A DNA stretch of 64,000 nucleotides, taken from positions 81,728 through 145,727 of the IMG/VR virus record IMGVR_UViG_3300046786_000331. One strand, given 5' to 3'. The translations under genes were made by a program, and so were the position numbers. Below, in pieces: positions 2,541 through 21,695 of the stretch (positions are counted from its first letter, which is position 1; every line of letters starts with the position of its first letter). Below the pieces are notes generated by a model that was given only the letters and a program-made list of their open reading frames with translations, ran no database searches and was not told where the DNA came from. The DNA comes from a virus.

Positions 2541-3080
2541 CTATACTAATTCCCAAGGATCTCTGACAAATCTAAGACTAACGGATATCCGCATTTCATT
2601 AGTTGGATTCCATACTTGATGAAGTTGTTTAGTATTAATTAGTGTAGCTGTAGTTAGATGAAACTTATCAACTTCGTCGATAATAGCATCTTCCGAAAAT
2701 GTTGTGTATGTTAATCCGTTTGGAAGAACCTGTTCTTGCTTAGTTCCTCTTGACAGTTTATAGAACGAAGTCCAGCAATCAGTGCAATTTCTCATAGGAA
2801 AATTCAAAGCAAGGTCATTACGTTGTGTATCAGTGTGCGGATCTACTTTTTTATTCTGGGGCGGTGTTCTGATTAATGCACATACTCGAAGATCCAGATT
2901 ACTGTTAGCTAACCATGCTTTCAATTGAGGACTATTTGCTAACAATCCGTCTTTGTTAATGTGACTAAATTGCGAACCGTCGTTGGGCATATTGTGTAAA
3001 CAATAAGATTGAAGTTCTGCGAGTATGGAATCGTATTCGGGAACCTCGATTGTTTTAAAAAAGAAATTATTTTTATCCAT
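2541..3080 (-). CDS. Fe(II)/2OG-type (DSBH/cupin) oxygenase-like protein
   Basis: HxD (PHTD), ALNFP, distal His (LHQV), terminal RxSxSxRF. Confidence 0.65.
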   Translation of the reverse strand: MDKNNFFFKTIEVPEYDSILAELQSYCLHNMPNDGSQFSHINKDGLLANSPQLKAWLANSNLDLRVCALIRTPPQNKKVDPHTDTQRNDLALNFPMRNCTDCWTSFYKLSRGTKQEQVLPNGLTYTTFSEDAIIDEVDKFHLTTATLINTKQLHQVWNPTNEMRISVSLRFVRDPWELV

Positions 3081-3089
3081 TAAATTTGC

Positions 3090-3115
3090 TATAAATATCG
3101 AAGTACACGTATTTA
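3090..3115. promoter_or_regulatory. pair of late-type promoters (TATAAATA on +, TAAATA on -)
   Basis: TATAAATA 3090-3097 matches the T4 late promoter consensus; TATTTA 3110-3115 serves the minus-strand gene. Confidence 0.6.
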
Positions 3116-3142
3116 TTGCGTCATTATAACCTGGTATTGAAA

Positions 3143-3904
3143 ATGAATGTTATTGGATTAGGAAGCAACAAGAAACCTTTTGTCTATTTAGACGAACATA
3201 TGCCTAAGCAGATAGATTGGGCAGGATTACATAATGAAGCAGCCTATGGCATTGCTAAATCAGAGTGGAGTAAAAGATACGTTTCTAGCGGAGTTCATCC
3301 TGATTGGGCTCATTTAGAAATTACTCCTGCTATGAGAAGCGCAGAACAAACATTGACATTAGAACAAAAGTTAATACTTCGAGATTTACAGACTACTGAC
3401 GAAAAGCTAAAGTTCATGGCAGCATTAAAATACATTGCTCATCCATTTTGGTTACTGTATCTAAGAAATAATAGACGTGTAGAATATTCCGGCATTGCAA
3501 ATAAGGCAGTAGGAAGAGATTGTGCTTGGACAGAGAATGCCAAATACTTTCCTAAGCTAGTTAAGTTTATAGAATCAATGCCCTTTACAGAAATAGGTCG
3601 TGTTGTATTCTTTATGACAGAACCAAATAATCAATTAGTTCCACATTATGATGCAGCAGACGAAAATCAAAGAATGAATAAACCACCAGATGATTTTATT
3701 TGGTTCACTACAAAGCCGGGAACTAAGAAAATGTTTGTAATGGACGGCGAGACTCACGAAAAAGCCTACGCCGAAGATGCCAAGAAGTTTGTATGGTGGA
3801 ATGAAATGGACTTTCACGGAACTGAGCCCATTGACCATTTTGCTTTTTCTATCAGAGTAGACGGCAAATTTAAGCCAGAAGTCTACGAAGCAGTTTTAAA
3901 ATAA
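3143..3904 (+). CDS. Fe(II)/2OG-type oxygenase-like protein (AspH-like)
   Basis: GRVVFF...PHYD...FHG...FSIRVDG; start moved to ATG 3143. Confidence 0.6.
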   Translation: MNVIGLGSNKKPFVYLDEHMPKQIDWAGLHNEAAYGIAKSEWSKRYVSSGVHPDWAHLEITPAMRSAEQTLTLEQKLILRDLQTTDEKLKFMAALKYIAHPFWLLYLRNNRRVEYSGIANKAVGRDCAWTENAKYFPKLVKFIESMPFTEIGRVVFFMTEPNNQLVPHYDAADENQRMNKPPDDFIWFTTKPGTKKMFVMDGETHEKAYAEDAKKFVWWNEMDFHGTEPIDHFAFSIRVDGKFKPEVYEAVLK

Positions 3905-4483
3905 AGCGTAACTAGAATCAGTTGAGTCAATATCAACAATCAAGTGTATTCTTTCTACATTTGAATTGTTTTCGGCAGCATGTAAATCTCTATTAGCAAG
4001 CTGGCACAGCATGCCTTCCGGCATGTGGGTAGGGTTAGATAGTCCAGGACCGAAAAACACCATGTCTTGATGTGTTATAAACGGTACATGAAACCTATAA
4101 TGAGCTTGGAAGTACGGACCTGGATCAATATGTTCTCCAATTTTACCCCCTGGTAATAATTTTACAAGCATAATTCGTCCTAGTCTAGATCCATTTACTC
4201 TATCGTAGATCCAATCGATTAGATCACCAACAGCAGGATACATTGCTCTAGCCCTTGTGTCCATGCAATCAACATAAACAGATAACGCTTCGACAGTATG
4301 CGGAGTACCCCAAGGAGCTTTATGCACTCTTAAGTGATTAGTAATGCTGGTTGCAAAGACAGCAGCTTCGCCGCGTCTATCTGGAATCGGTAAATCATTC
4401 CAATCAATATTTAGAACTTCGTTTTTAGCGTTAATAAATAGTTGAGCAGGAACTGTATCTATAATTTTTACATGAGGTTTCAT
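3896..4483 (-). CDS. aspartyl/asparaginyl beta-hydroxylase-family protein
   Basis: GRIMLVKLLPGGKIGEHID, RFHVP, HAAENNSNVERIHLIVD; start moved to ATG 4483, 5 nt after TAAATA. Confidence 0.8.
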   Translation of the reverse strand: MKPHVKIIDTVPAQLFINAKNEVLNIDWNDLPIPDRRGEAAVFATSITNHLRVHKAPWGTPHTVEALSVYVDCMDTRARAMYPAVGDLIDWIYDRVNGSRLGRIMLVKLLPGGKIGEHIDPGPYFQAHYRFHVPFITHQDMVFFGPGLSNPTHMPEGMLCQLANRDLHAAENNSNVERIHLIVDIDSTDSSYALF

Positions 4484-4520
4484 GCAAATATTTATTAGGA
4501 TGTAGTGAGGTTGAAAAATA

Positions 4521-5108
4521 ATGTTAGGCAAAACTGAGTATTACAGAAGTGTACCAATGTCTTCCTTTGAAGAAGGACACAAGTTAGTCTACGAAGCAAA
4601 CAAACATCGTTTCGATGTAACAAAGCTAGGAGCTACCGGCATTATTCCTTGGACAAAAGAAAACTTTCCAGGAATATTTGATGAAGTAAATGCAATAGGT
4701 TCTGCCAGAGGTCAACGTGTCGCACGTTGTAGGTTCTTTGTAACTCCTAAAAACTTTAAATTGAATGTTCATACCGATGGACATTTGATGGATATTGATG
4801 CCTATGCCTTAAACATTCCGATTGTGTTTGCAGAAGACAATCACTTTATGAATTGGTTTACATATGACGGTGAACTAAAAACAGAAACCTCCGATACCTA
4901 TGCTAATTCAATATCCCCAGCTAAGCCAGAAGAGCTTGTTTTAGCTGCAAAATTAACATTAACAACTCCACACTATGTAAAGATAGGAATCTTTCATTCT
5001 GTGGACAATCCAGTAGACAAAGAAAGAATAATTTTAAGTATTAGATTTACTGATTCGTTCCCTTTAACTAAATTAGAATATGAGCAAAATAACAAACGTA
5101 CACAGTAA
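4521..5108 (+). CDS. Fe(II)/2OG-type oxygenase-like protein
   Basis: VHTDG, ALNIP, FHSVDN, RIILSIRF; paralog-like to 2541..3080 and 8886..9467. Confidence 0.65.
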   Translation: MLGKTEYYRSVPMSSFEEGHKLVYEANKHRFDVTKLGATGIIPWTKENFPGIFDEVNAIGSARGQRVARCRFFVTPKNFKLNVHTDGHLMDIDAYALNIPIVFAEDNHFMNWFTYDGELKTETSDTYANSISPAKPEELVLAAKLTLTTPHYVKIGIFHSVDNPVDKERIILSIRFTDSFPLTKLEYEQNNKRTQ

Positions 5109-5958
5109 TTGGGCAACTCGAATCGAGTTTGATAATCCTAAAGATTTTTTTAATTCTCCTGCAGGCTATTGGAGAGATATGCTCTATGAAAGAAAGCTAC
5201 TAATCTTTAAAAAGATGACTTTTTCTAAAGAGGATTATGCAAAGTTTTCGTTAGAATTTGGAAAGCCTTGGGCTAATCAAGATTATAACTATAGTCAAGA
5301 ATCAAAAGAAGATGTATTAACCGACAAAGGTGTTATTACATTAAGTCCATTTAGTAATAAAACAAGTCATAGAATTAAATTACAGTCTATGCCTTACCAT
5401 GCTGATATTCCAAATAGAATACACAAGCCATTCCCTCACAGAAGTCTATGGATTACTAAAAATCCTAACCCTCTTAATTCTGGAATCACCGGTTTCTTAA
5501 ATATCAGCGAAGAAGCATTTAACTTTTTAACAGACGAGTTGAAAGAACTTCTGCCAAGAGTTACTGTTATTCAACAAAGTTGGTACAAAGCAGGAACAGA
5601 TATTCAAGAATATTCTCTAGTAAAGGTACATCCTATTACAGGAGAAAAATCATTACGCCTTAATTATTACAACAAAGGTGAAAATAAAGGTGCATGGATC
5701 TGTGGAGTAAAGATTGACGGTGTTCTACAACCTGATTGTTTGCTTATAGAAAAATACATGTGGCATTTATTAAAGTTTCAAGAACTGCAATACAAGCACA
5801 CCTGGGACGATTTTGATATTCTAATATACGACAACTATCCGTTCATACATAACAGAAGCGAACTGATTTTAGAAGGTGGTGATGAAAGACACTTTTATAG
5901 AATCAACATCGACCACACAACTAAAGAAGAGTTTTTAGATATTTCCGCCAATCGCTAA
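5080..5958 (+). CDS. TauD/TfdA-family 2OG-dependent dioxygenase
   Basis: LLIFK, YHAD, VKVHPITGEKSL, HTWDDFDILIYDN, HNR, terminal RxxxR. Confidence 0.8.
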   Translation: MSKITNVHSNWATRIEFDNPKDFFNSPAGYWRDMLYERKLLIFKKMTFSKEDYAKFSLEFGKPWANQDYNYSQESKEDVLTDKGVITLSPFSNKTSHRIKLQSMPYHADIPNRIHKPFPHRSLWITKNPNPLNSGITGFLNISEEAFNFLTDELKELLPRVTVIQQSWYKAGTDIQEYSLVKVHPITGEKSLRLNYYNKGENKGAWICGVKIDGVLQPDCLLIEKYMWHLLKFQELQYKHTWDDFDILIYDNYPFIHNRSELILEGGDERHFYRINIDHTTKEEFLDISANR

Positions 5959-6528
5959 CGGATTTCGATACTGTTGTTTTAAGAAAGTACATCTAACAAT
6001 AGTATCGTGAGGCAATAAAATTCTGTTAAAAAGAATTTGCCAATGATGTGTATATAGACATTTAGTTTTTGCAGGAACTAAACACTCGTCAAAATAATCA
6101 TAGCGTTCGTTTGCCCAGTCGCTAAAGTTAAATCTTCTTAAAAGTTTAGCGTGTTTAGCGTTCCATAGTGTGTAGAATTTAAACCTACCTGCTTCTTCAT
6201 TGAACTTAATCATGTGATCCAATAAAGCTCTAGCAATCTCTCTATTTTGCTTTGATCTAATCTGCGTACCATACCAAGCAGGTTCGTCTGTACTTTGATA
6301 GCAAGAAATTGCTCCAATGATATTGTCGTCTTCATCAAATGCTCCAAACGCATGATAGCTTTTTAAGTCAGATAGATATGTAGTACAAAATCCTTTGTGA
6401 TAAATGCGGGCCATATTTGCTTTGGCAAAGAAGTCCACATCGTCTACGTTTGCTCCCATGTACTTTTGTACATCGAATAATGGCTTTAATGCTTCTTCGT
6501 GTCCGCTGTTTAGTTTCTTAATAATCAT
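5935..6528 (-). CDS. GNAT-like acyltransferase
   Basis: AFGAFDEDDNIIGAI strand pair followed by REIARALLDHMIK helix (motif A-like). Confidence 0.5.
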   Translation of the reverse strand: MIIKKLNSGHEEALKPLFDVQKYMGANVDDVDFFAKANMARIYHKGFCTTYLSDLKSYHAFGAFDEDDNIIGAISCYQSTDEPAWYGTQIRSKQNREIARALLDHMIKFNEEAGRFKFYTLWNAKHAKLLRRFNFSDWANERYDYFDECLVPAKTKCLYTHHWQILFNRILLPHDTIVRCTFLKQQYRNPLAIGGNI

Positions 6529-7445
6529 AAGTTTGCTCTAAGTTGTCTTAATGTTTCTTCTAACGGAATTCCGTCTATATTAGATTCTAATCGTTTGATT
6601 TGATTCATACCGATTTCTTTGTAAGCACTATGATTAAATGCTAACAAACTTTCAAACCCGTGTGTCTTACGCTTAGGTGTTATATAAGGACACAGGCTTT
6701 TTAAAATTCTATTTTTACTTGAAACAGATGTTAATTTATAATTAAATCTATCAGTTACAAGTGATTCAATACTTGGATTCTCTAAGTAGTACAACAATAG
6801 TTCCGGAGTATAACTGAACCATTCGTTTACTAGTGGAACATTAAACTTATTTGTAAAACGCATTGCACTAGCATCTTCATTTTCACGGAAAGTATAGTAC
6901 CAAAAGCTGCCATCTCGATTAACACTTCTTGTTAGTAACGCTTCTCCGCCCATTACCGCAGGGGCACCTATCTTAAGAATGTTATAGTAGACCATAATAT
7001 AGGTAATTTGTGTACATTGAAGTTGTTCACCGAAGTCAGTTGCAGCACCTGATTCGAAGAAATCGATAACATCAAAGTCAATGATTTCTAAATCTAAACC
7101 CTTTTCTTCTGCAATTCTTTCTGCTTCCATAACATCGGCAGCATTGTAACCATCTTCAAATTTAATAGTTACGCATTTAGGTTTAACACCAATTGAAAGA
7201 AAGTTGTTTACAACAATTTCACTATCTGTACCGCCACTTAGAAATACAACCAAGTCCTTGCCAAACTCTTGATAAACACTATCTGCTGTACGTCTTAATT
7301 CGTTTTCGTAATTGCTTGTTCGATATTGATCGGGATCAACAGCTCCCACTGATACTTTAAATTTTTCAAAAGACTCTTCACGGTATCCCCATTCTCTTCC
7401 ACCGATAGAATATTTTAAATGATTATTGAGCGTGAAGTTTGTCAT
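6525..7445 (-). CDS. PP-loop (asparagine-synthetase-like) ATP pyrophosphatase
   Basis: VVFLSGGTDSE PP-loop, AVMGGE, C-terminal KxxGFE; no glutaminase domain; start moved to ATG 7445. Confidence 0.7.
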   Translation of the reverse strand: MTNFTLNNHLKYSIGGREWGYREESFEKFKVSVGAVDPDQYRTSNYENELRRTADSVYQEFGKDLVVFLSGGTDSEIVVNNFLSIGVKPKCVTIKFEDGYNAADVMEAERIAEEKGLDLEIIDFDVIDFFESGAATDFGEQLQCTQITYIMVYYNILKIGAPAVMGGEALLTRSVNRDGSFWYYTFRENEDASAMRFTNKFNVPLVNEWFSYTPELLLYYLENPSIESLVTDRFNYKLTSVSSKNRILKSLCPYITPKRKTHGFESLLAFNHSAYKEIGMNQIKRLESNIDGIPLEETLRQLRANL

Positions 7446-8259
7446 GTCTATCTTGGTAAATTTTTTCTCTGCTTTCTTTAGTTGCAATCAATGGGAGCAT
7501 AATCAACGACATATCAAATTCTTTCGAATTTCCACTTACTGTTGTTCCGAAATCATATGACGATGCCCTAGCATGATGATTATTGTGCCAACCTTGCCCC
7601 CAAGTGATCCATGCTAAGAATGGAACGTTGCGACTGTTATCCTTGGTATCAAAGTTTCTGTAACCGTATCCGTTAGTATGGCAGAATACATTGATGTTAC
7701 TTTCCATATAAAGACTCACCGCCGCCGGCAACATGAATCCAAATAGCAGCACTTGCCAACCGAATAAAATTAATACAGTGATATAGGTTACAAGAATAAT
7801 CTTAATATAGTTTTTAGCAAACCACATTTGCATAGGATCTCTAATTAAGTCAATTGCATACTTGGGATTGAAGTATTGATCCCAATCGTGTAACCACATG
7901 TGCCAAGCATAGAGCCAACCTTTCGTTGGGCTGTGTGCATCTTTGTCAGTATCGCTATATCTATGATGACTGCCTCTGTGTATAGCGGCCCAACCCAACG
8001 GACTGCCTTGTAGACTTAAACAACCTAGCCATAGCAGAATTGGTTTTAGACCCGGGCGAGCTTCGAACGCTTTATGGCTCACGTATCTATGTAGAGTAAT
8101 AGCAACTCCAACACCTTCGATTAAAATCCACCCTAGTGCAAAATATAAAACATTCGCCCATTCAAATCCAAAAAACAAATGGAAGAAAATTAGTCCTAGC
8201 CAAGCTAGGGCATGGACTGGGTACAAAACGTAGTTAAGGAAGGTGTTTATCTTGTTCAT
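7423..8259 (-). CDS. membrane fatty acid desaturase (delta-9 acyl-CoA type)
   Basis: Three His boxes HRYVSH, HRGSHH, HNNHH; D-x-HSP; TM segments. Confidence 0.9.
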   Translation of the reverse strand: MNKINTFLNYVLYPVHALAWLGLIFFHLFFGFEWANVLYFALGWILIEGVGVAITLHRYVSHKAFEARPGLKPILLWLGCLSLQGSPLGWAAIHRGSHHRYSDTDKDAHSPTKGWLYAWHMWLHDWDQYFNPKYAIDLIRDPMQMWFAKNYIKIILVTYITVLILFGWQVLLFGFMLPAAVSLYMESNINVFCHTNGYGYRNFDTKDNSRNVPFLAWITWGQGWHNNHHARASSYDFGTTVSGNSKEFDMSLIMLPLIATKESREKIYQDRHDKLHAQ

Positions 8260-8263: not shown

Positions 8264-8312
8264 TATTTAACGCCTCAGAGTGCGGCTAAGAGAGTTTTGT
8301 GAGTAGTAAATA
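8264..8312. promoter_or_regulatory. back-to-back TAAATA late-type promoters
   Basis: TATTTA 8264-8269 lies 4 nt from minus ATG 8259; TAAATA 8307-8312 lies 4 nt from ATG 8317. Confidence 0.65.
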
Positions 8313-8316
8313 CATG

Positions 8317-8889
8317 ATGTTAGTTACTGATCTTTCCAAAGACGATACACATATAAATCTGTGGTATGAATATCAATCACAGATAATGGAATCAGACGAC
8401 CCGTTAATTGAAAATTATCTATACCTAAATCCAAAATCTTTTGCTTGTTTTCCAACAGTAATCGAAGAGGATAGGATTGTTTGTTTTAGTGCTTTGCAAA
8501 TTAACAAATGGGGTAATGGTATTGCTCGATGCAGCACTAGAATGTGGGTTCACCCGGATCACAGATTACCAGGAATGTCAAAATTTTCAGGTGGGGATCG
8601 ATTTTTAAATACAACGCATTGCTTGCCTATACAATTTGAAGAAGCTAAAAGACTAGGAATAGAATGTTTGTTTATTAGCAGAGAAAAGAATAAAGTAGGA
8701 TTTCAAGAATACATCAATCTAATAAAAATAAATTGCGGATATAGCTTTGTACTAGAAGAACAAAAATATAACGTATGCGGATCGGAAGAGCCTGTGCCCG
8801 AATCATGCAAACAATTCGTAGCCATTTGTCCATTAACAGAGAATGGACACAATGTTTGGAAAGAAAATATGGATAAATTTAAATTATGA
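8317..8889 (+). CDS. GNAT-like protein
   Basis: IVCFSAL...ARCSTRMWVHPDHR motif A-like; start ATG 8317 or 8314. Confidence 0.5.
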   Translation: MLVTDLSKDDTHINLWYEYQSQIMESDDPLIENYLYLNPKSFACFPTVIEEDRIVCFSALQINKWGNGIARCSTRMWVHPDHRLPGMSKFSGGDRFLNTTHCLPIQFEEAKRLGIECLFISREKNKVGFQEYINLIKINCGYSFVLEEQKYNVCGSEEPVPESCKQFVAICPLTENGHNVWKENMDKFKL

Positions 8890-9467
8890 ACACTGAACTT
8901 TACTCTAAATATGCCTGGACCCCCGAGTTCCAAAAGCTCAGCGAATGGGGTACACATCTAATAGATGAGGAAAGAGCCCTGGGTATAGCTCAATTTACAA
9001 AAGAAGGACATAATATTGTAAATCGAGTCCTTGATAGAGATTTGCCTAAATGGGTAGTTGATCTGTTTAATGTTCCTATTAGTCATGTGCAGTTATTTTC
9101 TGCACAACCGCATGCTATAGGATCAGTACACAAAGACGGATCAGATAGATTGTGTGCATTTAACATTCCTGTTAAAAATGCGGATCAAGGAATAATGGAA
9201 TGGTTAGATGGACCAGTAGAAGGGCGCCTATTAGAGCTTGCCCACACGTCTATTAGATTGCTAAAAGATCGAAATGATCGATTAAAAATGGATACTTCTG
9301 CCCAAATTCTTCTAGATTTTCCAACATTGATTAATACAAATGAATGGCACAGAGTTGATAATTCTGCAAATAGTCGCTGGAGACATGTTCTAAGTATTAG
9401 ATTTTTAAATAATCCCGGCTATCAAGAAGTCAAAGATTCACTATCTGGCTTTTTAAAAAGTGCATAG
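8886..9467 (+). CDS. Fe(II)/2OG-type oxygenase-like protein
   Basis: VHKDG, AFNIP, WHRVDN, RHVLSIRF. Confidence 0.65.
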   Translation: MNTELYSKYAWTPEFQKLSEWGTHLIDEERALGIAQFTKEGHNIVNRVLDRDLPKWVVDLFNVPISHVQLFSAQPHAIGSVHKDGSDRLCAFNIPVKNADQGIMEWLDGPVEGRLLELAHTSIRLLKDRNDRLKMDTSAQILLDFPTLINTNEWHRVDNSANSRWRHVLSIRFLNNPGYQEVKDSLSGFLKSA

Positions 9468-9535: not shown

Positions 9536-10492
9536 ATGCCCTTACAGATTCGCAGAGGCAACACCGCTGAAATCAACGCTATCACGCCACTAGTAGGCGA
9601 GATTATTTACAATACACAAACCGGAAGCCTCCACGTTGGTAACGGTACAGATCCTGGTGGAGTAATTGCCACAGCATACAGCAATGACATGGCCAAAGAT
9701 GCTGCTGCTGAATCTATCGCAGACGGCACACATTCCAATATTTCCTTTACATACAATCCTACAACTAAAGCATTAAGTGCAGCGTTGGATGCAAAGATTT
9801 CAACAGATTTAAAAGGATCTGTTTATGATGCTACAGATACATTATTGCTAGATGCTACCACAAATACATACTACGGAAATGTTGATTCTGTTACCGGTTT
9901 GAGTTATTTTAGTGCTGTTAATATTCGTAGCAATGTTTATAGTTCTGTATCTAGTGCATTTTCAGTAACACAGTCTCATAACATTGCTGATGCCAGAAAC
10001 GTTTCTTTTTTAAGATCTAGAGGTACTTACAGTTTCCCAACTGATGTACAAACAGGCGACGATCTAGCAGAGTTTGCATGCCTAGGTTATGCAGGTGGAC
10101 AATATGTAGTGGGCGGTCAGATTACAGTAAAGGCAGACGACACTGCTATTTCTAGTACATCACTAAGAACCAAGTTCCAATTCTTTGCTAACGGTGGCGC
10201 TGGAGTTCTAAGAGAACAAATTTCTATCGAAGCAAACGGTTTGTTAAAAGCTAACTATGGTATTACAAACAATACACTAACATTAGATGGTAATAAGATT
10301 TCAACTATTGTATCTAATGCAGATATCGAATTAGATCCTAGTGGTACAGGTACTGTAGATTTTATGGTTGCTGAACAAACAACTGTTGGCTCAGCAGGTG
10401 GTGCAACTGCATTACCAGCAACTCCTACAAAATACTTTAAGATTAAAGTTAATGGTGTTGCATATGTTGTTCCAGCATACGCAGTTTCTTAA
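9536..10492 (+). CDS. tail-fibre/virion appendage protein with Mtd-N-like N-terminus
   Basis: MPLQIRRG...PLVGEIIYNTQT..LHVGNG resembles the major tropism determinant N-terminal pattern; Thr/Ser/Gly-rich; C-terminal ALPATPTKYFKIKVNGVAYVVP. Confidence 0.75.
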   Translation: MPLQIRRGNTAEINAITPLVGEIIYNTQTGSLHVGNGTDPGGVIATAYSNDMAKDAAAESIADGTHSNISFTYNPTTKALSAALDAKISTDLKGSVYDATDTLLLDATTNTYYGNVDSVTGLSYFSAVNIRSNVYSSVSSAFSVTQSHNIADARNVSFLRSRGTYSFPTDVQTGDDLAEFACLGYAGGQYVVGGQITVKADDTAISSTSLRTKFQFFANGGAGVLREQISIEANGLLKANYGITNNTLTLDGNKISTIVSNADIELDPSGTGTVDFMVAEQTTVGSAGGATALPATPTKYFKIKVNGVAYVVPAYAVS

Positions 10493-11464: not shown

Positions 11465-11470
11465 AGCCTG

Positions 11471-13225: not shown

Positions 13226-14118
13226 GGAATGTTTTCGTAAAATCTACGAGTTTCACCTGTACCGGATTTTAGAAACTTAATAAAATCTCTAAACGGTGTA
13301 CGCATTGCGTGTTTCTCATAAAGCAATGGAGCTTTCAAAAACGGGACTTTTTCAAATCCTGCATACTTAGGAAAGTAAATCAACTCGTCCTTCCAATATT
13401 TTCCGTAGATCAAAGGCTTGATATAATAGTCCCATCGGTCAACAGTTCTTAAATTAACACCTTCCTTGGCTAATCCGTTAAAGGCAAAGTATGACCAAGA
13501 GTACATACAAGCATGAAGAATTTCTTCGTCTAAAATACTTGCTAGGAACTCACTAGTGTCTCCGTAAAAATGAAACTTTCCTTTTCTAGGAAGAGATTCA
13601 AAGGCACGTTGTCTTGCAATTTCCGGAGTGTTGTATCCCATAAACCAGAAGCTTGCACGTTCTTGCATTGAGATAATAACATAGGGATCATGTGTAATAG
13701 AAATAAAATCGTAATCGTCTGGCAGTAGGCTTAGGAATTTTTTCTGTAGGATAGAATTAACTTGTATGCCAGTTGCTTCAGCTTCGGCTTCCATTTCTTC
13801 TTTATAGTCGTAAGGATCAAAATCAATAATGTGTGTTTTGATTCCGTACTTCTTATCAACAATTTTTAAATTGTTGTATTCGTTATCGTTATACCCAGGC
13901 AAATACAAAAATGCTGTTTCGACAGGAATGTCTTGTGTTACAAAACTATGCAATACACTTTGGCTGTCAATGCCCGAACTCAAACTAATCATTAGTTTTG
14001 AATTTGATTGTGCAATGTCGAGTGCTCGCTTGTCCGATTCTTGGCGCATATTTCCTACAGGGCGAGTGCAGGCAGTGTAATCAATATACCATTTGCCATC
14101 TTCGAAACCGTGATTCAT
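13204..14118 (-). CDS. divergent PP-loop ATP pyrophosphatase-like protein
   Basis: ISLSSGIDSQ PP-loop variant; C-terminal KYAGFE like 6525..7445. Confidence 0.6.
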   Translation of the reverse strand: MNHGFEDGKWYIDYTACTRPVGNMRQESDKRALDIAQSNSKLMISLSSGIDSQSVLHSFVTQDIPVETAFLYLPGYNDNEYNNLKIVDKKYGIKTHIIDFDPYDYKEEMEAEAEATGIQVNSILQKKFLSLLPDDYDFISITHDPYVIISMQERASFWFMGYNTPEIARQRAFESLPRKGKFHFYGDTSEFLASILDEEILHACMYSWSYFAFNGLAKEGVNLRTVDRWDYYIKPLIYGKYWKDELIYFPKYAGFEKVPFLKAPLLYEKHAMRTPFRDFIKFLKSGTGETRRFYENIPYTEPNK

Positions 14119-14142
14119 AAACTGTCCTTATAATTAATACCA

Positions 14143-14165
14143 CGTATTTAATGCCTATAAATACG
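14143..14165. promoter_or_regulatory. divergent late-type promoter pair (8-bp inverted repeat)
   Basis: CGTATTTA-N7-TAAATACG; plus arm contains TATAAATA. Confidence 0.65.
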
Positions 14166-14179
14166 ATACGGAAATAATT

Positions 14180-15340
14180 ATGCTAGATAAAAAATTAGGT
14201 TACTACATCTGCAACGGGCAACACTTTGATTCCAAAATCAAAGCATTTATGTATTCACTAGAAGTAAAACAACCAGTTGCCTGGAATTTTAACAATCGTG
14301 CATTCAAAGAAAATAATTGGGCCTTGGAACCTGTAGAAACTTTGGATCAATTGTATGATGCTCGAGCTAGAGAGCTACGAGAGAAATACGATTATATCAT
14401 GTTAAGTTACAGTGGTGGGGCAGATAGTCATAACATCTTAATGGCATTTGTGCGACAGAATCTACATATAGATGAAATAGTCGTTAACACTATGACTAAG
14501 GCTACTGAAAAATTTACAGTCTTAGATCCCAATAACAAAGAAAATAAAAATGCCGCGGCAGAGTATGCTTTACAAACATTACCTCGCCTCAAGGAAGTAG
14601 AACATAAAATTCCTAAAACTAAAATTACAGTTCTAGACTTAACGGATCATTTATTCAATATGCTTGAGGGAGTAGGTGATGCAAGTTGGATTATGGACAA
14701 GCGAGAACAGGTAAACATTGCCGGTGCTACTCGATTCAACTACACACACTTTGATACTATTCGTAAGCAGTTTGATAAAGATAAAAAAATTGCGTTAGTA
14801 TTAGGTTTAGAAAAACCAAGGACATATATTGATAATGGAAACCTTTACATTGTATTTCACGATCGTGCTGCTAATATGGTTACTGTGGCAGAACATATTA
14901 GAGATTACACAAACAGCGCAGTTGAATATTTCTACTGGAGTCCAGACGCCCTTAGGATTCTAACCAAGCAGGCACATGTTATCAAACATTGGTTAGAAGC
15001 GTTTCCAGAAAATCAAACACTGTGGGCAAAAGAAAACTTTAGTCCAGAGAGTTATAGGTTTGTACACGAACGTATTCTCAGAGGATTGTTATATACAACC
15101 TGGGATAACAATTGGTATCAGGCAGACAAAGCAGTTAAAGATTGGTACAGTGAATTCGATGCTTGGTTCTATAACGGATACGCAGATACAAAAGCCTTCC
15201 GTGTTTGGCAGGAAGGCTTGCAGTATTTAGAAAACAACCTTGGCCCTTATGTTAAGAAAGCCAAGGATGGAACAGCCGATGCTCTTATTTCGCTGTCTCA
15301 GACGTATCTGGTTGGTCCAGTGCGGACTTACCCCAGGTAA
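14180..15340 (+). CDS. PP-loop (adenine nucleotide alpha-hydrolase) protein
   Basis: LY..RA..LREKYDYIMLSYSGGADSHN, GLEKP, EYFYWSP; paralog of 16557..17738. Confidence 0.7.
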   Translation: MLDKKLGYYICNGQHFDSKIKAFMYSLEVKQPVAWNFNNRAFKENNWALEPVETLDQLYDARARELREKYDYIMLSYSGGADSHNILMAFVRQNLHIDEIVVNTMTKATEKFTVLDPNNKENKNAAAEYALQTLPRLKEVEHKIPKTKITVLDLTDHLFNMLEGVGDASWIMDKREQVNIAGATRFNYTHFDTIRKQFDKDKKIALVLGLEKPRTYIDNGNLYIVFHDRAANMVTVAEHIRDYTNSAVEYFYWSPDALRILTKQAHVIKHWLEAFPENQTLWAKENFSPESYRFVHERILRGLLYTTWDNNWYQADKAVKDWYSEFDAWFYNGYADTKAFRVWQEGLQYLENNLGPYVKKAKDGTADALISLSQTYLVGPVRTYPR

Positions 15341-15749
15341 TTCTGTTCCACACACGTTCGTGTGTGTAGTAGATAATGATGTTGATAATTGTGGCAATTG
15401 TTAAAAATGCCGCTGCTGCTTTCCACGAACCTGTCATAATGTAAGGAATCATGAAGTTATTGATTGTAATCAATATACGCCATGTAATCGACTTGCTGAT
15501 AGTTCTAGGCTGTCCATCAACAAACATATTAGTATCACCTGGCTTGCGATTCCATTGTGCATAGTTCCATGCTCGCTCATGCAACCAATGTAAACACATA
15601 TTGATAACTGCGGCAACTCCGAGAATCTGTGCGCCAATGATCCAAGAACCCGATACAATGAATCCGTTCAATAAATGACTTAGTGAAAACAAAACTCGAA
15701 TAGTTAATGTTTTCGCAATGCTCCGAGATTGTGTCTCTGTATATTGCAT
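15285..15749 (-). CDS. tandem DUF2061-like membrane protein
   Basis: Two repeats of RSxxKxxTxR...HERxWN with TM helices; AAGG SD. Confidence 0.75.
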   Translation of the reverse strand: MQYTETQSRSIAKTLTIRVLFSLSHLLNGFIVSGSWIIGAQILGVAAVINMCLHWLHERAWNYAQWNRKPGDTNMFVDGQPRTISKSITWRILITINNFMIPYIMTGSWKAAAAFLTIATIINIIIYYTHERVWNRITWGKSALDQPDTSETAK

Positions 15750-15801: not shown

Positions 15802-16560
15802 ATGACTAAGCCAGCGTTATTAATTTTTGGAGATAGCTTTACTTCGGACTATCGTGATCCAAAAAGAGAACATTATGAGTTGCGAAAAAACATGTTTACA
15901 TTTCATGATGAACTAGCTGCATCAGGAATGTTTTCATCTATTAAAAATTTTTCAGCTCCTGGATCTAATTTCTGGTGGTCCTATGAAGAATTCAAAAAAG
16001 TCTACAATCCAAAAACTACAATTGTATTATGGGCAATAACCTATCCCGGTCGTGTGAGTGATTCTAAGTTTGGACATGTTCCTAGTTATATTGACGCAGT
16101 AGCTAAAATAAAAAATTTTAAAGAAACTAATGTCCTTAAATGGGAGAATTTAGAGTTCTATAAAGCTGCAAGAGATTATTTCTTTTATATAAGCAATCAA
16201 GAGTACAACATCAGGGCTCAACATCTTATTGTAGAATCTATTTTAAAAGATGAATTGCTTGATAATTTTTTATTGATGCCGTGTTATCACGAAAGTCTTC
16301 CTTTTGCTATTCAGCCCAAACATGCTTTAATTGATATTTTCAATCTAGAAAATCAAGCATTGAATATTAAGAACTATGCTGACTGGCTAGACAATTTTAC
16401 TGATTCGCGATGCAATCATATTACTGAAAAGAATCATAAAATTCTAGGACAGACAATAATCGAACACATTAATAATAATAAAAAAATACTAGATATTGAT
16501 CTACAAAATTTTGTTAAGCCAAGCAAAGAAGAACTTTCAACATATCTTTTTAAAAAGTGA
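15802..16560 (+). CDS. SGNH/GDSL-like hydrolase or acyltransferase
   Basis: IFGDSF block I, NFSAPGS block II, C-terminal DSRCNH...NHKIL. Confidence 0.6.
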   Translation: MTKPALLIFGDSFTSDYRDPKREHYELRKNMFTFHDELAASGMFSSIKNFSAPGSNFWWSYEEFKKVYNPKTTIVLWAITYPGRVSDSKFGHVPSYIDAVAKIKNFKETNVLKWENLEFYKAARDYFFYISNQEYNIRAQHLIVESILKDELLDNFLLMPCYHESLPFAIQPKHALIDIFNLENQALNIKNYADWLDNFTDSRCNHITEKNHKILGQTIIEHINNNKKILDIDLQNFVKPSKEELSTYLFKK

Positions 16561-17738
16561 ATACTGTACATCCAATACTAAACAGCAAATACGGTTGCTG
16601 GCTTGTTAATAAAATACCATTTACTTCTAAAGTAGAAGCGTTACGGTATGCAAGCCAGCACGGCAACCCAAGAGTATATTATTACTTTCACAATCATGTT
16701 TGGGAAGGAGTTGATAAAAATACGCTAGGTAAAATTCCTCTAACAACTCTATACAAAGAACGTGCTCTGCAACTTAGAGACAAATATGATTATCTAGTTT
16801 TACATTATTCTGGAGGCTCTGATAGCCATAACATATTACATACGTTTTTATCTAACAACATAAAATTAGACGAAGTTACAGTAAGATGGCCAAAGCCATT
16901 AGTGGACGGAAAGTTCTATACTCCAAACACTCAAGACAAGAGTGCCAGGAATAGTCCTAGCGAATGGAACTTTGCTATTAAGCCTACATTAGAATATTTG
17001 AAACAATATCACCCGGATATTAAAATAAACATTGTCGACTACGGATCAAACCTATCTGAAAGATTTTTAAAAATAGATCATATCGAATCTAGAATTAAAT
17101 TTAATGGAATTGCTAGAGGCGGACTTGCTAACACTGTTTGGCACGTGGATCCTAAAGTAGAAGGTGCAATGGCACAATTAAAAATAGATAGCGTAGGACA
17201 CTTATTCGGAATCGAAAAACCTATTTTGTATTTTAAAGATAATGCCATTTGGTTTCAATTTATGGATGGTGTGTGGGACACAGCAATAATGCCCAGGAAT
17301 AAAATAGAAGAAAAGGTAGAAGCATTTTACTGGAGTCCGGAAATTCCTTTGCTGCCTGTTGAACAAGCATATCAATCAGCATTGTGGTTCAAGGTAAACA
17401 AAGAAAAGCAAAAAGTTATTACCGAACGCACTGGTATGACTGATGCCGATTATCTAAAACAATTTGCAGATCAAGGCGAAATACACAAAGCAGTCTTGTA
17501 CAAAGAATCTTGGGATATGAATAAGTTTCAAGCAGGCAAACCTAATATATCTAGAAGCGATTGGTTTTTCTGGCTATTCGAAAATCCAGAAATGCTATCG
17601 ATGAGACAGAATTGGGAACGTGCAATGATTCACATTGCTGACGGAATACACGATTCTTATCTAACTAAAGTAACAGAGAATCTTAAATTTCTCAGACCCA
17701 TTCATACAAAATTATTCCATTTGTTGGATCTAGATTAA
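16557..17738 (+). CDS. PP-loop (adenine nucleotide alpha-hydrolase) protein
   Basis: LYKERALQLRDKYDYLVLHYSGGSDSHN, GIEKP, EAFYWSP; GTGA overlap start. Confidence 0.7.
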   Translation: MNTVHPILNSKYGCWLVNKIPFTSKVEALRYASQHGNPRVYYYFHNHVWEGVDKNTLGKIPLTTLYKERALQLRDKYDYLVLHYSGGSDSHNILHTFLSNNIKLDEVTVRWPKPLVDGKFYTPNTQDKSARNSPSEWNFAIKPTLEYLKQYHPDIKINIVDYGSNLSERFLKIDHIESRIKFNGIARGGLANTVWHVDPKVEGAMAQLKIDSVGHLFGIEKPILYFKDNAIWFQFMDGVWDTAIMPRNKIEEKVEAFYWSPEIPLLPVEQAYQSALWFKVNKEKQKVITERTGMTDADYLKQFADQGEIHKAVLYKESWDMNKFQAGKPNISRSDWFFWLFENPEMLSMRQNWERAMIHIADGIHDSYLTKVTENLKFLRPIHTKLFHLLDLD

Positions 17739-17764: not shown

Positions 17765-18694
17765 ATGAGTATATTAAAAACCATTTTGTTGGCGTTAATG
17801 TTCACGTCGATTAACGCTGTTGCGAATCCCTATAAAGATGTACCAAAAAATGTACAATTCTATATACCCTACGGTCCAGGAGGTGTTGCAGATGTACAAT
17901 ATAGACATCTAGAACAATACCTAGCTGGTAAAGGTATCACATTAACTGCAATTTATAAAGCAGGTGGAAACAGTACCATTGCCGCAGCGGAGTTTGTAAA
18001 TGCTCCGAAAGACGGATCTGTTCTTATGTTAAACTCAACAAGTAACTCTTGGTTAGCTGAACAGAGATTAAATAAAAAAGTTATCGATCCTATAGTTACT
18101 ACCGGTGGAAATGCTAATGCAATTATTACATATCCCGGCAGTAAGTATGAAAACTTCGATGACTTTATCAAGTACCTACGTGCAGGCGATACTGATATTA
18201 AAATAGGTTGGCATGCAGTTGCTAATTTGTTAAATATTCGACAACTTGCAGACAGGGTAGGAGCTCCTACTCCGTTAACTGTACCTTACAAAACTTCAAC
18301 TGATTCTAGTAGAGATGTTGCAGGCAAGCATCTTTCAGTGGCAATTGTTCCTATGACAACAGCAATACCTTTATTAGAAGCAGGGCGAGTTAAGATGATT
18401 TTTGGATTTGCAGCAGGCTCGTCTGGATTGCCTCCTGGTACATTTAATATCAAGAGTCGATATCCGAACTGGAGACATGATGAATTATTCTTTATTGGAT
18501 TGCCACCAGGATCAGACGATAGTGCATTTAAAGCATGGACTCTGATACTTAGAGAATATTTGAATCTTAAAGAAACAGAGGAAGCATATCATAAAGCATA
18601 CTTTGGTAGAGATGTAGGTGGGCCAAATTATGTAAATGAAGTTGTTACACGTCAAGGTGAAGCTCTTAAAAAGTACAATGTTGAGATAAAGTAA
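17765..18694 (+). CDS. Bug/TctC tripartite tricarboxylate transporter substrate-binding protein
   Basis: Signal peptide; IPYGPGGVAD, YKAGG.STIAA, APKDG, VPYK, GLPPG; TAAATA 17736 and AAGGA SD. Confidence 0.8.
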   Translation: MSILKTILLALMFTSINAVANPYKDVPKNVQFYIPYGPGGVADVQYRHLEQYLAGKGITLTAIYKAGGNSTIAAAEFVNAPKDGSVLMLNSTSNSWLAEQRLNKKVIDPIVTTGGNANAIITYPGSKYENFDDFIKYLRAGDTDIKIGWHAVANLLNIRQLADRVGAPTPLTVPYKTSTDSSRDVAGKHLSVAIVPMTTAIPLLEAGRVKMIFGFAAGSSGLPPGTFNIKSRYPNWRHDELFFIGLPPGSDDSAFKAWTLILREYLNLKETEEAYHKAYFGRDVGGPNYVNEVVTRQGEALKKYNVEIK

Positions 18695-18695: not shown

Positions 18696-18881
18696 ATGGA
18701 TTTTGATACCAGCAACTTTAAAGAAAGAAAATGGAAGACTGGAGTTCTTCCTCCCGAGGATGCGATGCGCCCAAGATGCAAGGTGCTGTATTGTTACGAC
18801 GGAGTAAAGGGAGTACCAGATGAAGATGAGACTGATTTAGTCGATTGGCTCATAGTTATAGCATACGAAACTAAGGAATAA
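18696..18881 (+). CDS. small hypothetical protein (61 aa)
   Basis: Exactly fills the gap between two plus-strand genes with 1-nt spacers. Confidence 0.6.
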   Translation: MDFDTSNFKERKWKTGVLPPEDAMRPRCKVLYCYDGVKGVPDEDETDLVDWLIVIAYETKE

Positions 18882-18882
18882 T

Positions 18883-19659
18883 ATGGAACCAAAAGACTAC
18901 GAAGCTAGGGCAAAATACAAATCGCTTCCTCTTGATTTTCAATATCAAGGTGCCGAGAAGTACAAGAGTAACTTTGACTATGTTAGAGAAAACTTTAGTA
19001 GCTACCATTTTGATAAATGGAAGAAAGAAGACGAAGGCGAATGGTATCATCAACTTGGAAGATTTGAACTAGATCCATCTATTGACGAAATGCTTCCATG
19101 GCTAATTGAAAAGTCTAAAGATGTAGGATGGAATGACTTATCTAAGATCGGTGCCCATCCTGGGTTCCCTGGAGGAGTTAGTCCGTTACACGCACAAGAA
19201 GAACATGATAGAATTGCCAGTGGCGTGGAGACAGACTTCGTGCAAATGGTTCCAGAACCAGACATGGTGAATATCCCTGCGCTACAAAAGATGGGAGAGT
19301 ACTGGAAATTTAAACGCCTACGTACTCGAGTTCATGTTCAGTTTCCTGGACAACTATTTTCAACACACGTTGATAAACTATGGCATCGTAATCCGTTGGC
19401 ACCTCACAAGATGTGTAGGATGGTTATTTTCTTACAAGACTACGAGCCAGGTCAGGTAATGATTTACGGAAATGCAGTATTAACACAGTGGCGTAAGGGA
19501 GATGTACACATTTTCGATACTCTCAATGTTCCTCATTCTACTGCTAATATGAGTTACAGTCCGAGAGCTGTTATGATTATTACTGCGGCAAGGACTGACG
19601 AGAGTGATGAAATACTAAGGGCATGTAACAAAGATAGTATTCATAGAATTACTTTGTAA
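18883..19659 (+). CDS. Fe(II)/2OG-type oxygenase-like protein (AspH-like)
   Basis: VQFPGQ..STHVD, RMVIFLQDYEPGQ, PHSTAN, PRAVMIIT; AAGGA SD. Confidence 0.7.
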   Translation: MEPKDYEARAKYKSLPLDFQYQGAEKYKSNFDYVRENFSSYHFDKWKKEDEGEWYHQLGRFELDPSIDEMLPWLIEKSKDVGWNDLSKIGAHPGFPGGVSPLHAQEEHDRIASGVETDFVQMVPEPDMVNIPALQKMGEYWKFKRLRTRVHVQFPGQLFSTHVDKLWHRNPLAPHKMCRMVIFLQDYEPGQVMIYGNAVLTQWRKGDVHIFDTLNVPHSTANMSYSPRAVMIITAARTDESDEILRACNKDSIHRITL

Positions 19660-20720
19660 GTCTTTAGAAAATATTCATCAACATCAATACCTAATCCTAT
19701 CCCATTAGGTAACAAGGACCCAACAGGGTCCTTTGTTATATCTGCTTCGAGATAATTGTTAGTAACACTAACGCCCCAATCAACGTTTGGAACTACCGCA
19801 GCACAATGCAATAACGCTGCTGTGGCTATTCCTGTTTCTGAAACTTTTCCTGATATATTAATTGCCAAGCCTAATTGGCTGCAAAGGTCGGAACACTCAA
19901 CAACACTTAACGGTCCACCTAATTTAATATTTTTAAGATTAATTCCACGAGCAGCATCGAGTCTTTTTATTTCGTATAGATCGTTTATATCAAATACAAA
20001 TTCATCCATACATAGGTTAGTTGATAATCGTTGAATCAATACCATGTCGTCAACACTAGACACAGGTTGCTCTAAGAATTTTAAATTACAATCTGTTGTT
20101 CCTTCTATATAACAGATTGTTTGATCCAATGTTAACCCTGCATTAGCATCTGCACAGATGATTGCAGAATCCCCGAGTTGCTTACGAAGTTCTACGGTAC
20201 CTTGAATGTCTTCATCGATGTCCTTGCTGGCAACTTTAATTTTAAACCAAGATGCTGTAGAAGACATTGCTTCGACAATATTTTCTTCCCAGCTTTTATT
20301 TCCTAGAATATGAATGCTGTTAAAAGTATCACGCTTTACAGTTCCCAAAATATTTGCCACAGATGTGTTTTGAGATTTTGAATACGCATCTAACAACGCT
20401 ATTTCTATCGCACTCTTGGCTCCTGGATTGGCATATATCGATTTGTTTATTTTTAACAACAGGGTTTTGTAATCGGATATATTTTGTCCCACCAAAATTT
20501 TAACAAATACAGATTCAATCACTAGTTTAATTGTGCTTTGAAGCTCTCCAGTCATTCTCGGAGCTGATGCTGTTTCTCCCCACCCTACAATTCCCGAAGA
20601 TAATTCTAACCGTACAATTACGTTTTCTGCTGTCTTTAAACAGCGATCATTCATGTACATTGGTTTTTTTAAAGGTATTGTTACTGGAAAAATTTCTATT
20701 TTTGCAATTGTATCTATCAT
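19641..20720 (-). CDS. enolase superfamily, mandelate racemase/muconate lactonizing enzyme subgroup
   Basis: GIVGWGE, AKSAIEIALLD, KxK (FKIK), metal ligands DAN/EQP/DE, second Lys (NLK..KLGG), P.GIGLGIDVD. Confidence 0.88.
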   Translation of the reverse strand: MIDTIAKIEIFPVTIPLKKPMYMNDRCLKTAENVIVRLELSSGIVGWGETASAPRMTGELQSTIKLVIESVFVKILVGQNISDYKTLLLKINKSIYANPGAKSAIEIALLDAYSKSQNTSVANILGTVKRDTFNSIHILGNKSWEENIVEAMSSTASWFKIKVASKDIDEDIQGTVELRKQLGDSAIICADANAGLTLDQTICYIEGTTDCNLKFLEQPVSSVDDMVLIQRLSTNLCMDEFVFDINDLYEIKRLDAARGINLKNIKLGGPLSVVECSDLCSQLGLAINISGKVSETGIATAALLHCAAVVPNVDWGVSVTNNYLEADITKDPVGSLLPNGIGLGIDVDEYFLKTYKVIL

Positions 20721-20771
20721 AACTATAATTATCTGCTAAATAAACGCAGTAATATCTTTACGGGAACTATT

Positions 20772-21077
20772 ATGGCATTTAAAGTAACCACAATTTATAA
20801 GCGTCCATCGTTGGACATACCATGGCACATCCAATGGTTTTTTGGAAAATATTCTCAGCAATATATCGATTGCCAGGTTTTATATATGATGGACTTACGT
20901 AGAGTTGTTAAGGGCGGCGACACGCTAACCCTAACTATCGAAAATACTTGGGATAGTGAAGAACAATTCATAGAATACACAAATAATACCGGAGTTGTTA
21001 ATCACATGGCCAAGGTTGATGAATATCACCAATCATGCGGAATCATTGCCGAGCCTAAAATATACGAAGAAATTTAA
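20772..21077 (+). CDS. small hypothetical protein (possible dimeric alpha/beta barrel)
   Basis: ORF with TAAATA at 20737; WDSEEQF motif. Confidence 0.6.
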   Translation: MAFKVTTIYKRPSLDIPWHIQWFFGKYSQQYIDCQVLYMMDLRRVVKGGDTLTLTIENTWDSEEQFIEYTNNTGVVNHMAKVDEYHQSCGIIAEPKIYEEI

Positions 21078-21090
21078 ATAATTTGGACAT

Positions 21091-21118
21091 AAAAAAAGGA
21101 CCCCGGAGGGTCCTTTTT
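21091..21118. terminator. bidirectional intrinsic terminator
   Basis: AAAAAGGACCC-CGGA-GGGTCCTTTTT; reads C(UCCG)G on the minus strand. Confidence 0.9.
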
Positions 21119-21131
21119 GCATTTATGCAGA

Positions 21132-21695
21132 TTAAAATGTTCTGGTGTAATTAAATGCTACGTTGTTTTGATTAGTATCTCCACGAACTTGGTCGTATCT
21201 AACTCCAACTGTGTCTTGCTTTGTTACAGCATAGCTCATACCAACTCTCCATGTGTTAGTTGTATCAGCATATGCAGTTGAATCAAATGCAGTTCTATAT
21301 CTGTAACCGAGACGTGCAGTTAGTCCAGTATTTCCTAACGGAGCAGTTACACCTGGTTCGACAGAGTAATAGCTGTAGTTAGTAACAGTTGTAAACTTTT
21401 GTCCAACGGCTACTCTCATATACGGACTAACCAATCCGACTGTTGTTCTGCCAGTTAGACTTCCTTCTATTCGACTATTGCTTACTGCACCAGTTGAATC
21501 CTTTGCACCAAAGTTTGTGGTGACTCCGCCGGAGAAATTCTTATTAATATTCTCCGAAACAGAAACTAGATAGAGTGAACTGTCAGTAGTACCTTTTACT
21601 CCTGTCTGATCCTGATACTCAACGGTTGCCGATGCTGCATACACAGCACTGTTTGATAAAATTGCTAAAGTTAAAATAGCCAATAGTTTTTTCAT
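21132..21695 (-). CDS. outer-membrane beta-barrel (porin-like) protein
   Basis: Sec signal peptide, alternating beta strands, C-terminal YTRTF Bam signal; AAGGAG SD. Confidence 0.75.
   Translation of the reverse strand: MKKLLAILTLAILSNSAVYAASATVEYQDQTGVKGTTDSSLYLVSVSENINKNFSGGVTTNFGAKDSTGAVSNSRIEGSLTGRTTVGLVSPYMRVAVGQKFTTVTNYSYYSVEPGVTAPLGNTGLTARLGYRYRTAFDSTAYADTTNTWRVGMSYAVTKQDTVGVRYDQVRGDTNQNNVAFNYTRTF

Follow-up and report, generated by a model that had tools for sequence, protein, structure and literature searches.

Several of the enzyme families that concern us here have been met before in phages. Viral Delta9 desaturases, the cyanophage vFAD enzymes, have been shown to be active (PMC5776448); multiple copies of 2-oxoglutarate (2OG) oxygenases are known, and unexplained, in T4-like aquatic phages (PMC3037559), with 24 copies in S-SCSM1 (PMC9602691); and CmoY, a phage homologue of asparagine synthetase, joins glycine to 5-carboxymethylcytosine in DNA (PMC12783734). 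In the window that we analyzed—64,000 nucleotides, bases 81728–145727 of the 145,727-base IMG/VR virus contig IMGVR_UViG_3300046786_000331—enzymes of all three kinds lie together in one island of ~19 kb (window positions 2541–21695), carried by an uncultured T4-like jumbo phage. The enzyme superfamilies, viral desaturases and oxygenase-rich phage regions are already known. What appears to be new are two conserved cassettes within the island, M1 and M2, for which no characterized counterpart is described in the literature that we searched.

The preliminary description of this DNA counted 26 genes in the island, and 26 open reading frames (ORFs) are indeed there. They include eight cupin proteins, four PP-loop ATPases, three GNAT-like proteins, a Delta9-type desaturase, an FMN enzyme resembling FabK and NMO, and a Rieske oxygenase, together with an enolase-superfamily epimerase, an exported TctC-like binding protein, and a small outer-membrane barrel. 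Profile or PDB matches confirm the desaturase, the FMN oxidoreductase, the Rieske oxygenase and the enolase-superfamily enzyme that it had named, and nucleotide-binding motifs confirm all four of its PP-loop ATPases (SGGxDS in g6525, g14180 and g16557; SSGIDS in g13204). Its statement that no scaffold synthase is present also holds: no polyketide synthase, nonribosomal peptide synthetase or carrier protein was found on the contig.

Set beside the known systems, the island is partly familiar. Like vFAD (PMC5776448), its desaturase is a phage membrane protein of the FA_desaturase family, with three His boxes and the sequence GxxWHNNHH; but it is no more than 31% identical to cultured-phage desaturases and, whereas vFAD stands alone, it shares its operon with a PP-loop enzyme, two GNAT-like proteins and, in some relatives, an acyl carrier protein (ACP). 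As in cyanophages, many divergent small 2OG oxygenases occupy a variable region of a large T4-like phage, but most of the copies in the island match no Pfam family, and they sit beside amide-ligase and desaturase cassettes. With the CmoA/CmoX/CmoY system (PMC12783734) the common feature is an ATP-dependent amide ligase that is encoded by a phage and resembles asparagine synthetase; in contrast, there is no CmoX on the contig or in complete relatives, and the PP-loop proteins of the island have no detectable similarity to cultured-phage proteins. Outside phages, the synthetase domain of AsnB, and beta-lactam synthetase, carbapenam synthetase and TsnB9, share with the island protein g14180 the SGGxDS motif and the overall fold, which imply carboxylate adenylation followed by amide formation. 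Protein g14180 differs from AsnB in that it has no N-terminal glutaminase domain, is only 7–12% identical, and belongs to a family that is almost wholly viral. Ornithine lipids, finally, are amide-linked lipids whose enzymes—OlsB, OlsC/LpxO and OlsE—comprise an N-acyltransferase of GNAT fold, an acyl hydroxylase of the AspH/LpxO family, and di-iron membrane hydroxylases or desaturases. This aminolipid kit resembles that of the island, except that PP-loop enzymes have no part in the pathway.

Two conserved cassettes in a variable background

The preliminary description suggested that the island may be an undescribed system. Comparison with other phages does not support a single system: relatives retain just two small cassettes and exchange the rest, and the island is not one system but two conserved, almost virus-only cassettes in a variable background. 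In its nearest relatives, L002 and L003, most of the island is conserved in the same order; g3116, g3896, g4521, g5080, and the SGNH-like and enolase genes are missing. Synteny in related phages had been proposed as a check, and it succeeds in part: M1 and M2 recur, but in the complete genome of the relative G001 only the NMO enzyme, PP-loop B and PP-loop A (the last in three copies) remain clustered, with DUF2061, g6525-like and g18883-like genes present as scattered singles.

Cassette M2 is an operon on the minus strand (5935–8259) made up of the desaturase gene g7423 (7423–8259), the PP-loop C gene g6525 (6525–7487), the true start of which is probably an internal ATG near 7445, and the GNAT-like gene g5935 (5935–6528). 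The desaturase scores 66.7 bits against Pfam FA_desaturase (cutoff 29.7), and its three His boxes are invariant in the alignment of its family (A4). It carries the GxxWHNNHH box, as Delta9 enzymes do; its NCBIfam DesA score, 64, is far under the cutoff of 400, and resemblance in this box suggests the Delta9 type. PP-loop C has an SGGTDS motif and weak QueC, Asn_synthase and NAD-synthetase matches; it and PP-loop B both fall in virus-only clusters with this same weak similarity. For g5935 the GNAT assignment is a weak one, from a single profile match (E 2e-3) and GNAT-named neighbors in the Atlas. Divergent from the operon, on the plus strand, is a second GNAT-like gene, g8299 (8299–8889), whose profile picks up five GNAT structures in the PDB (E 9e-4 to 1e-2). 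Across loci g8299 and another gene, c4, are mutually exclusive, g8299 being the replacement for c4 here.

Genes related to that of the desaturase are present on at least 591 viral stretches. We examined the neighborhoods of the best 80, and counted our own window as the 81st locus. The M2 genes are adjacent in ~67 of the 81—the number of operon blocks that hold both the desaturase and the PP-loop gene—and this adjacency spans loci in which desaturase identity ranges from 36 to 82%. The order of c4 or g8299, PP-loop C, g5935 and the desaturase is permuted between lineages, yet the genes stay side by side. The PP-loop B/C family is present in 77 of these loci, the g5935 family in 66, the AspH-like oxygenase family of g3896 in 65, and ThyX in 31. 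In seven, the nearest relative among them, PP-loop C is immediately preceded by the gene for an ACP of 74 aa with a DSL motif, and an FA_hydroxylase gene also occurs in relatives.

Homologues of PP-loop C in cellular genomes come mostly from Bdellovibrionota, where they are often found beside desaturases. In one metagenome-assembled genome of the Bdellovibrionales (L128, 6382–13968), a homologue of PP-loop C is clustered with a B12-radical-SAM enzyme, two desaturases, an ACP (PF00550, E 5e-12) and an SDR; this cluster is a cellular counterpart of M2. Two further contigs, L135 and L136, are binned as a Nitrososphaerales archaeon. They carry a phage-type cassette of desaturases, c4, FA hydroxylase, PP-loop C, g5935 and PP-loop A, and look like mis-binned phage DNA.

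The core of cassette M1 (11509–15340) comprises the NMO/FabK-like FMN enzyme g11509 (11509–12402, plus strand), the Rieske oxygenase (12404–13225, plus), in which the Rieske domain is confirmed, PP-loop B (g13204; 13204–14118, minus) and PP-loop A (g14180; 14180–15340, plus). The FMN enzyme scores 61 bits against NMO, and its best NCBIfam match is the FabK equivalog (E 5e-14). We considered, and rejected, a sugar acetamidino identity (WbuX, WbuZ) for g6525 and g11509: the matches (E 0.007 and 1e-4) are far under the cutoffs, and cover only the shared nucleotide- or phosphate-binding loops.

PP-loop A is the most informative of these proteins. It is 386 aa long, with ~50 residues preceding the PP-loop domain and its SGGADS motif, and it has no Pfam or NCBIfam match, nor any PDB match in a profile search with its family (A1). 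When modeled (AF2, pLDDT 90), it most closely resembles asparagine synthetase B (1ct9; Z 11.2 over 284 residues) and is also near human ASNS, beta-lactam synthetase, TsnB9 and carbapenam synthetase (Z 8.4–9.5 to 1jgt, 7ylz and 1q15); sequence identity to AsnB and its glutaminase-less relatives is 7–12%. An Ntn glutaminase domain with its catalytic Cys was not found in g14180, and fused or longer forms were sought without success. The fold without the glutaminase points to ATP-dependent formation of an amide from a carboxylate. The family runs to at least 923 metagenomic protein clusters and is almost entirely viral; a pattern scan of 185,579 species genomes turned up no relatives, a weak negative since the scan relies on short patterns. 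A tblastn search with PP-loop A and PP-loop B gave no match among 50,697 records of cultured phages. Three of the four PP-loop proteins of the island are acidic or neutral (pI 5.2–6.6).

A second paralogue of PP-loop A, g16557 (16557–17738, plus; 27% identical to g14180, E 1e-29), is followed on the same strand by g17765 (17765–18694), an exported binding protein of TctC/Bug type. The latter falls below the Pfam threshold (23.4 bits against a cutoff of 27, E 5e-5), and has a signal-like N-terminal segment, judged by eye; TctC proteins of relatives score 55–65 bits and pass. Neighborhood counts for PP-loop A come from 13 dereplicated loci. Members of the PP-loop B/C family are found in 11 of these, NMO in nine, and the desaturase in eight; a TctC protein follows PP-loop A in six. 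NMO, a divergent PP-loop B and PP-loop A are arranged alike in six loci; a locus scan with the single NMO protein found nothing. The genes for PP-loop A, PP-loop B and NMO are placed between the tRNA genes of the phage array in relatives G001 (280156–302664), L006, L009, L010 and L014, as are small 2OG oxygenase and desaturase genes in L010.

The oxygenases

The eight cupin proteins all display the motif HxD…H(…R). The eight 2OG oxygenases of the preliminary description hold up for seven, which are backed beyond the motif, and for the eighth, g18883, by motif alone. Only two pass Pfam thresholds: g3896 (3896–4531, minus), of the AspH/LpxO family (PF05118, Asp_Arg_Hydrox, 29.2 bits against a cutoff of 22.6), which also has a weak match to LpxO, and g5080 (5080–5958, plus), of the TauD/TfdA family (PF02668, 47.8 bits against 27). 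A third, g3116 (3116–3904, plus), contains an HYD…H motif and falls under the PF05118 cutoff (E 0.0036); it has homologues in 24 of the 80 desaturase-centered loci.

The other five—g2541, g4521, g8886, g10525 and g18883—match nothing in Pfam. Three of them, g2541 (2541–3080, minus, with TAAATA at –35), g4521 (4521–5108, plus) and g8886 (8886–9467, plus), form one family with their relatives (alignment A3), in which H82, D84, H155 and R166 are invariant. A PDB profile search with this family gave no match. The model of g8886 (AF2, pLDDT 89.8), the sole oxygenase that was modeled, is a double-stranded beta-helix, for which Foldseek returns a probability of 1.0 to an aKG oxygenase, ALKBH5, FIH, MINA53 and YcfD, with TM-scores of only 0.4–0.5. 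The family of g10525, which follows the GNAT gene g11015 (both within 10525–11497, minus), has invariant H75, D77 and H129 (A9), and is homologous to the first (hhalign 96.8%, E 2e-10). In g18883, which together with a preceding 61-aa ORF spans 18696–19659 on the plus strand, H162, D164, H218 and R228 are invariant (A10); there is no profile link to the others (hhalign 1.2%), and the motif is its sole support. These small proteins without a family look like real 2OG oxygenases, g18883 by its motif. As a set the oxygenases are variable, as they are in T4-like cyanophages.

Remaining genes of the island

Between the oxygenases g8886 and g10525 lies a plus-strand gene for a fibre-like protein with an Mtd_N domain (9536–10492; PF18454, E 4e-10). 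The GNAT protein g11015 passes Pfam (Acetyltransf_1, 25.9 bits) and is the one of the three GNATs first described that does so; g8299 and g5935 have weak profile or language-model support. A DUF2061 membrane protein with two repeats (15285–15749, minus; PF09834, 90 bits) is followed by g15802 (15802–16560, plus), a possible SGNH/GDSL hydrolase. The SGNH-like character once assigned to g15802 comes down to a GDS motif near the N-terminus; the protein has no family match, and no homologue in relatives.

The enolase-superfamily enzyme (19641–20720, minus) has both MR_MLE domains, N and C, and is closest to L-Ala-D/L-Glu epimerase and muconate cycloisomerase (PDB 1jpm, E 4e-33); its gene was not found in any relative examined. 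The last stretch of the island (20772–21695) contains a conserved ORF of 101 aa, g20772 (plus), which is present in five of the 13 PP-loop A loci, a hairpin (21090–21118), and the gene for an outer-membrane beta-barrel (21132–21695, minus) with a signal peptide and a C-terminal Phe. The barrel, earlier called a porin, is like the solute-binding protein g17765 below threshold (OMP_b-brl, E 0.007). A PHROGs search added almost nothing to the annotation of the island, and NCBIfam had no match for ten unannotated island proteins.

Layout, hairpins and start signals

The 26 genes form 17 short transcription units on alternating strands. They were said to lie between terminator hairpins, and at the left boundary this is so: a strong, bidirectional intrinsic terminator (2512–2538; –15.3 kcal/mol, z –3.98) consists of an A-tract, an AGGACC-TTCG-GGTCCT stem and a T-tract. 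At the right end, 21695, there is no hairpin. The hairpin family AGGACC-N4-6-GGTCCT occurs four times in the window (at 2515, 10511, 19715 and 21097), where none is expected by chance, and all four copies are within the island, three at convergent gene ends. The copy at 21097 belongs to the terminator at 21090–21118 (–21.2 kcal/mol, z –3.9); that at 19715 is situated within the 3' end of the enolase-family gene, a gene that relatives are without.

The sequence TAAATA occurs 94 times on the contig. In 37 cases it is placed 8–60 nt upstream of a start codon on the same strand, about nine times the ~4 expected; on the opposite strand, as a control, 18 copies are so placed. It had been thought to head nearly every transcription unit of the island. 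The enrichment is real, but it precedes ten of the 26 genes and heads ten of the 17 units, compared with 27 of 207 genes elsewhere. Outside the island TAAATA stands before a tail-spike-like gene, a structural-like gene, the giant ORF at 32418 and what is probably the gene for the large subunit of ribonucleotide reductase. The full late-promoter-like element, TATAAATA, is found in the island before g3116 and g14180 only. Before three genes (7423–8259, 11509–12402 and 15802–16560) TAAATA lies just 4–5 nt ahead of the start codon; if it is a –10-like element there, the mRNAs would be leaderless. About ten related loci keep this close spacing in front of their desaturase gene. G001 encodes a homologue of the T4 late sigma factor gp55 (13917–14189; tblastn E 6e-6, 32% identity over 97 aa), and none was found on our own contig, which is partial. 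Sigma70-type promoters are no more frequent in the island than chance predicts (73 found, 76 expected). From the motif, it is reasonable to regard the island genes as probably late-type.

The phage and its relatives

By CheckV the contig is 41% complete, and so the genome of the phage, which has no relative in culture, is probably ~350 kb. Megablast of the island against the 50,697 cultured phage records gave no nucleotide match, and proteins encoded outside the island have only distant similarity to those of jumbo phages such as PA5oct, phiN3 and Atu_ph07. The relative G001 (354 kb, rated 100% complete) shares 93 of the 233 genes called on the contig; another, G002, is rated 92% complete.

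Upstream of the window the contig has 34 tRNA genes and a tmRNA gene (25844–26269 of the contig; the tmRNA gene of G001 is at 179583–179981). This tRNA array stops ~9 kb before the island. An unusual tRNA-Ile of ~92 nt, with the anticodon TAT, is encoded by three of the phages (our contig, 64326–64417; L009, 14780–14871; L010, 17316–17407), and G001 has a tRNA (174391–174465) whose anticodon, CTA, would decode the amber codon. The island is flanked by ThyX, queD and queC genes, the last two at 28510–29016 and 31413–32063 of the window, and downstream of it are two giant ORFs (32418–39806, 2462 aa; 42469–49056, 2195 aa).

Proposed function and alternatives

Enzyme families, catalytic motifs, conserved adjacency and the enrichment of TAAATA were observed directly; for substrates, product and the time of expression we must infer. 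The account that we favor, with confidence evenly divided, is of an accessory island with a core that produces an unsaturated fatty-acyl amide. M2 would act on a fatty acyl chain bound to a carrier or a lipid: its PP-loop enzyme might activate the carboxylate with ATP, its GNAT-like proteins might move the acyl group to an amine, and its desaturase would add the double bond, to yield an unsaturated fatty-acyl amide at the host membrane. M1, with its flavoenzyme, PP-loop B, two AsnB-shaped enzymes devoid of a glutaminase domain and the exported carboxylate-binding protein of TctC type, might capture a carboxylic acid and amidate, or reduce, it. The likely role of the AspH/LpxO-like, TauD-like and small cupin oxygenases is to hydroxylate the substrates of M1 and M2, or others. 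Acyl-chain chemistry that ends in an amide is suggested by the fold of PP-loop A, the desaturase, the ACP of relatives, the Bdellovibrionota cluster, the FabK-like enzyme, the weak LpxO match of g3896, and the FA_hydroxylase of relatives. The preliminary description had also raised the possibility of a host envelope lipid or a small molecule, and this idea fits the enzyme and synteny evidence.

Several observations weigh against this account. The ACP is within the operon in only seven of the 81 loci, no PF00550 match was found on our own contig, and we know of no PP-loop enzyme that loads acyl carrier proteins. The GNAT assignments of g8299 and g5935 are weak, and the similarity of the FMN enzyme to FabK is distant, with E 5e-14 far under the equivalog cutoff. 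The small oxygenases have their best fold matches among protein and RNA oxygenases, not among lipid enzymes. G001 has no desaturase, and M1 and M2 do not always occur together. The best-scoring desaturase loci, moreover, include many related phages, which inflates the synteny counts.

The island might instead be a pure mosaic: unrelated auxiliary genes, or morons, with promoters of their own, gathered in a hypervariable region adjacent to the tRNA array and having no chemistry in common. We think this unlikely, but well worth keeping in mind. Just three gene families stay clustered in the complete genome of G001, the 80 desaturase loci lack homologues of six island genes, and no relative was found to carry the enolase-family or the SGNH-like gene; the units are short, 17 in number, and alternate in strand; one 2OG oxygenase and the desaturase have paralogues elsewhere on the contig; the same genes lie between tRNA genes in relatives; and T4-like cyanophages carry from one to 24 scattered 2OG oxygenase genes (PMC3037559, PMC9602691). 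A pure mosaic sits badly, however, with the adjacency of desaturase, PP-loop C and GNAT-like genes, which persists at 36–82% desaturase identity despite permuted order, with the recurrent micro-synteny of NMO, PP-loop B and PP-loop A, and with the pairing of PP-loop C and desaturase in Bdellovibrionota genomes as well.

Two further explanations assign the enzymes to macromolecules, and we consider each of them improbable. In one, put forward in the preliminary description, the amide ligases, acyltransferases and hydroxylases have as their substrate, late in morphogenesis, a structural protein of the phage, for instance the fibre-like one of the island. The Mtd_N protein (9536–10492) is certainly inside the island, the late-type motif is present, FIH, MINA53, NO66, YcfD and JMJD7, all protein hydroxylases, are among the best fold matches of the small oxygenase, and AsnB-shaped enzymes without a glutaminase domain include the lasso cyclases, which cyclize peptides. 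But full-length homologues of the fibre-like protein occur in only two of the 80 desaturase loci and solely in the nearest relatives, and cassettes exist without a fibre gene, as in G001; TM-scores to the protein hydroxylases are 0.4–0.5; and a membrane desaturase and an ACP are a poor fit to such a role. In the other explanation, PP-loop ligases and oxygenases hypermodify the phage DNA, in the manner of CmoY (PMC12783734), or the phage tRNAs. ThyX, queD and queC flank the island, ThyX recurs in 31 of the 81 loci, ALKBH5 is among the fold matches, and PP-loop A and NMO are interspersed with tRNA genes in G001, L006, L009, L010 and L014, although accessory genes are known to gather in tRNA regions (PMC3037559). 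Opposed to this, no C5-methyltransferase CmoX (PF00145) was found on the contig or in G001 or G002, and no TGT/DpdA (PF01702), the transglycosylase expected for 7-deazaguanine modification of DNA, on the contig or in relatives that are 92–100% complete, with the proviso that phage DpdA may be too divergent for the model. The tblastn search with PP-loop A and B against the cultured phage records was empty; CmoY comes from Synechococcus phage S-B43, which is in GenBank and presumably among those records. The acidic or neutral pI of three of the four PP-loop proteins (5.2–6.6), and the linkage to desaturase and ACP, likewise argue against a nucleic-acid substrate.

Implications

Returning to the fatty-acyl amide, we hold it possible, though rather less than even, that M1 and M2 together constitute a widespread, virus-specific pathway to an undescribed amide-linked unsaturated lipid, or N-acyl signal, in infected cells. 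If so, its product would reshape the envelope of the host, to exclude superinfection, say, or to control when lysis occurs, or would be released as a signal. Hundreds of uncultured large phage contigs carry the cassettes, and none has a named function or a cultured carrier. The AsnB-shaped proteins widen the class of ATP-dependent amide ligases that was recently shown to act on DNA in phages, and the identity of their substrate would be informative either way. Should a lipid-like amide be made, phages of this kind would run a small lipid or signal pathway of their own, beyond the tuning of membrane fluidity by a lone desaturase.

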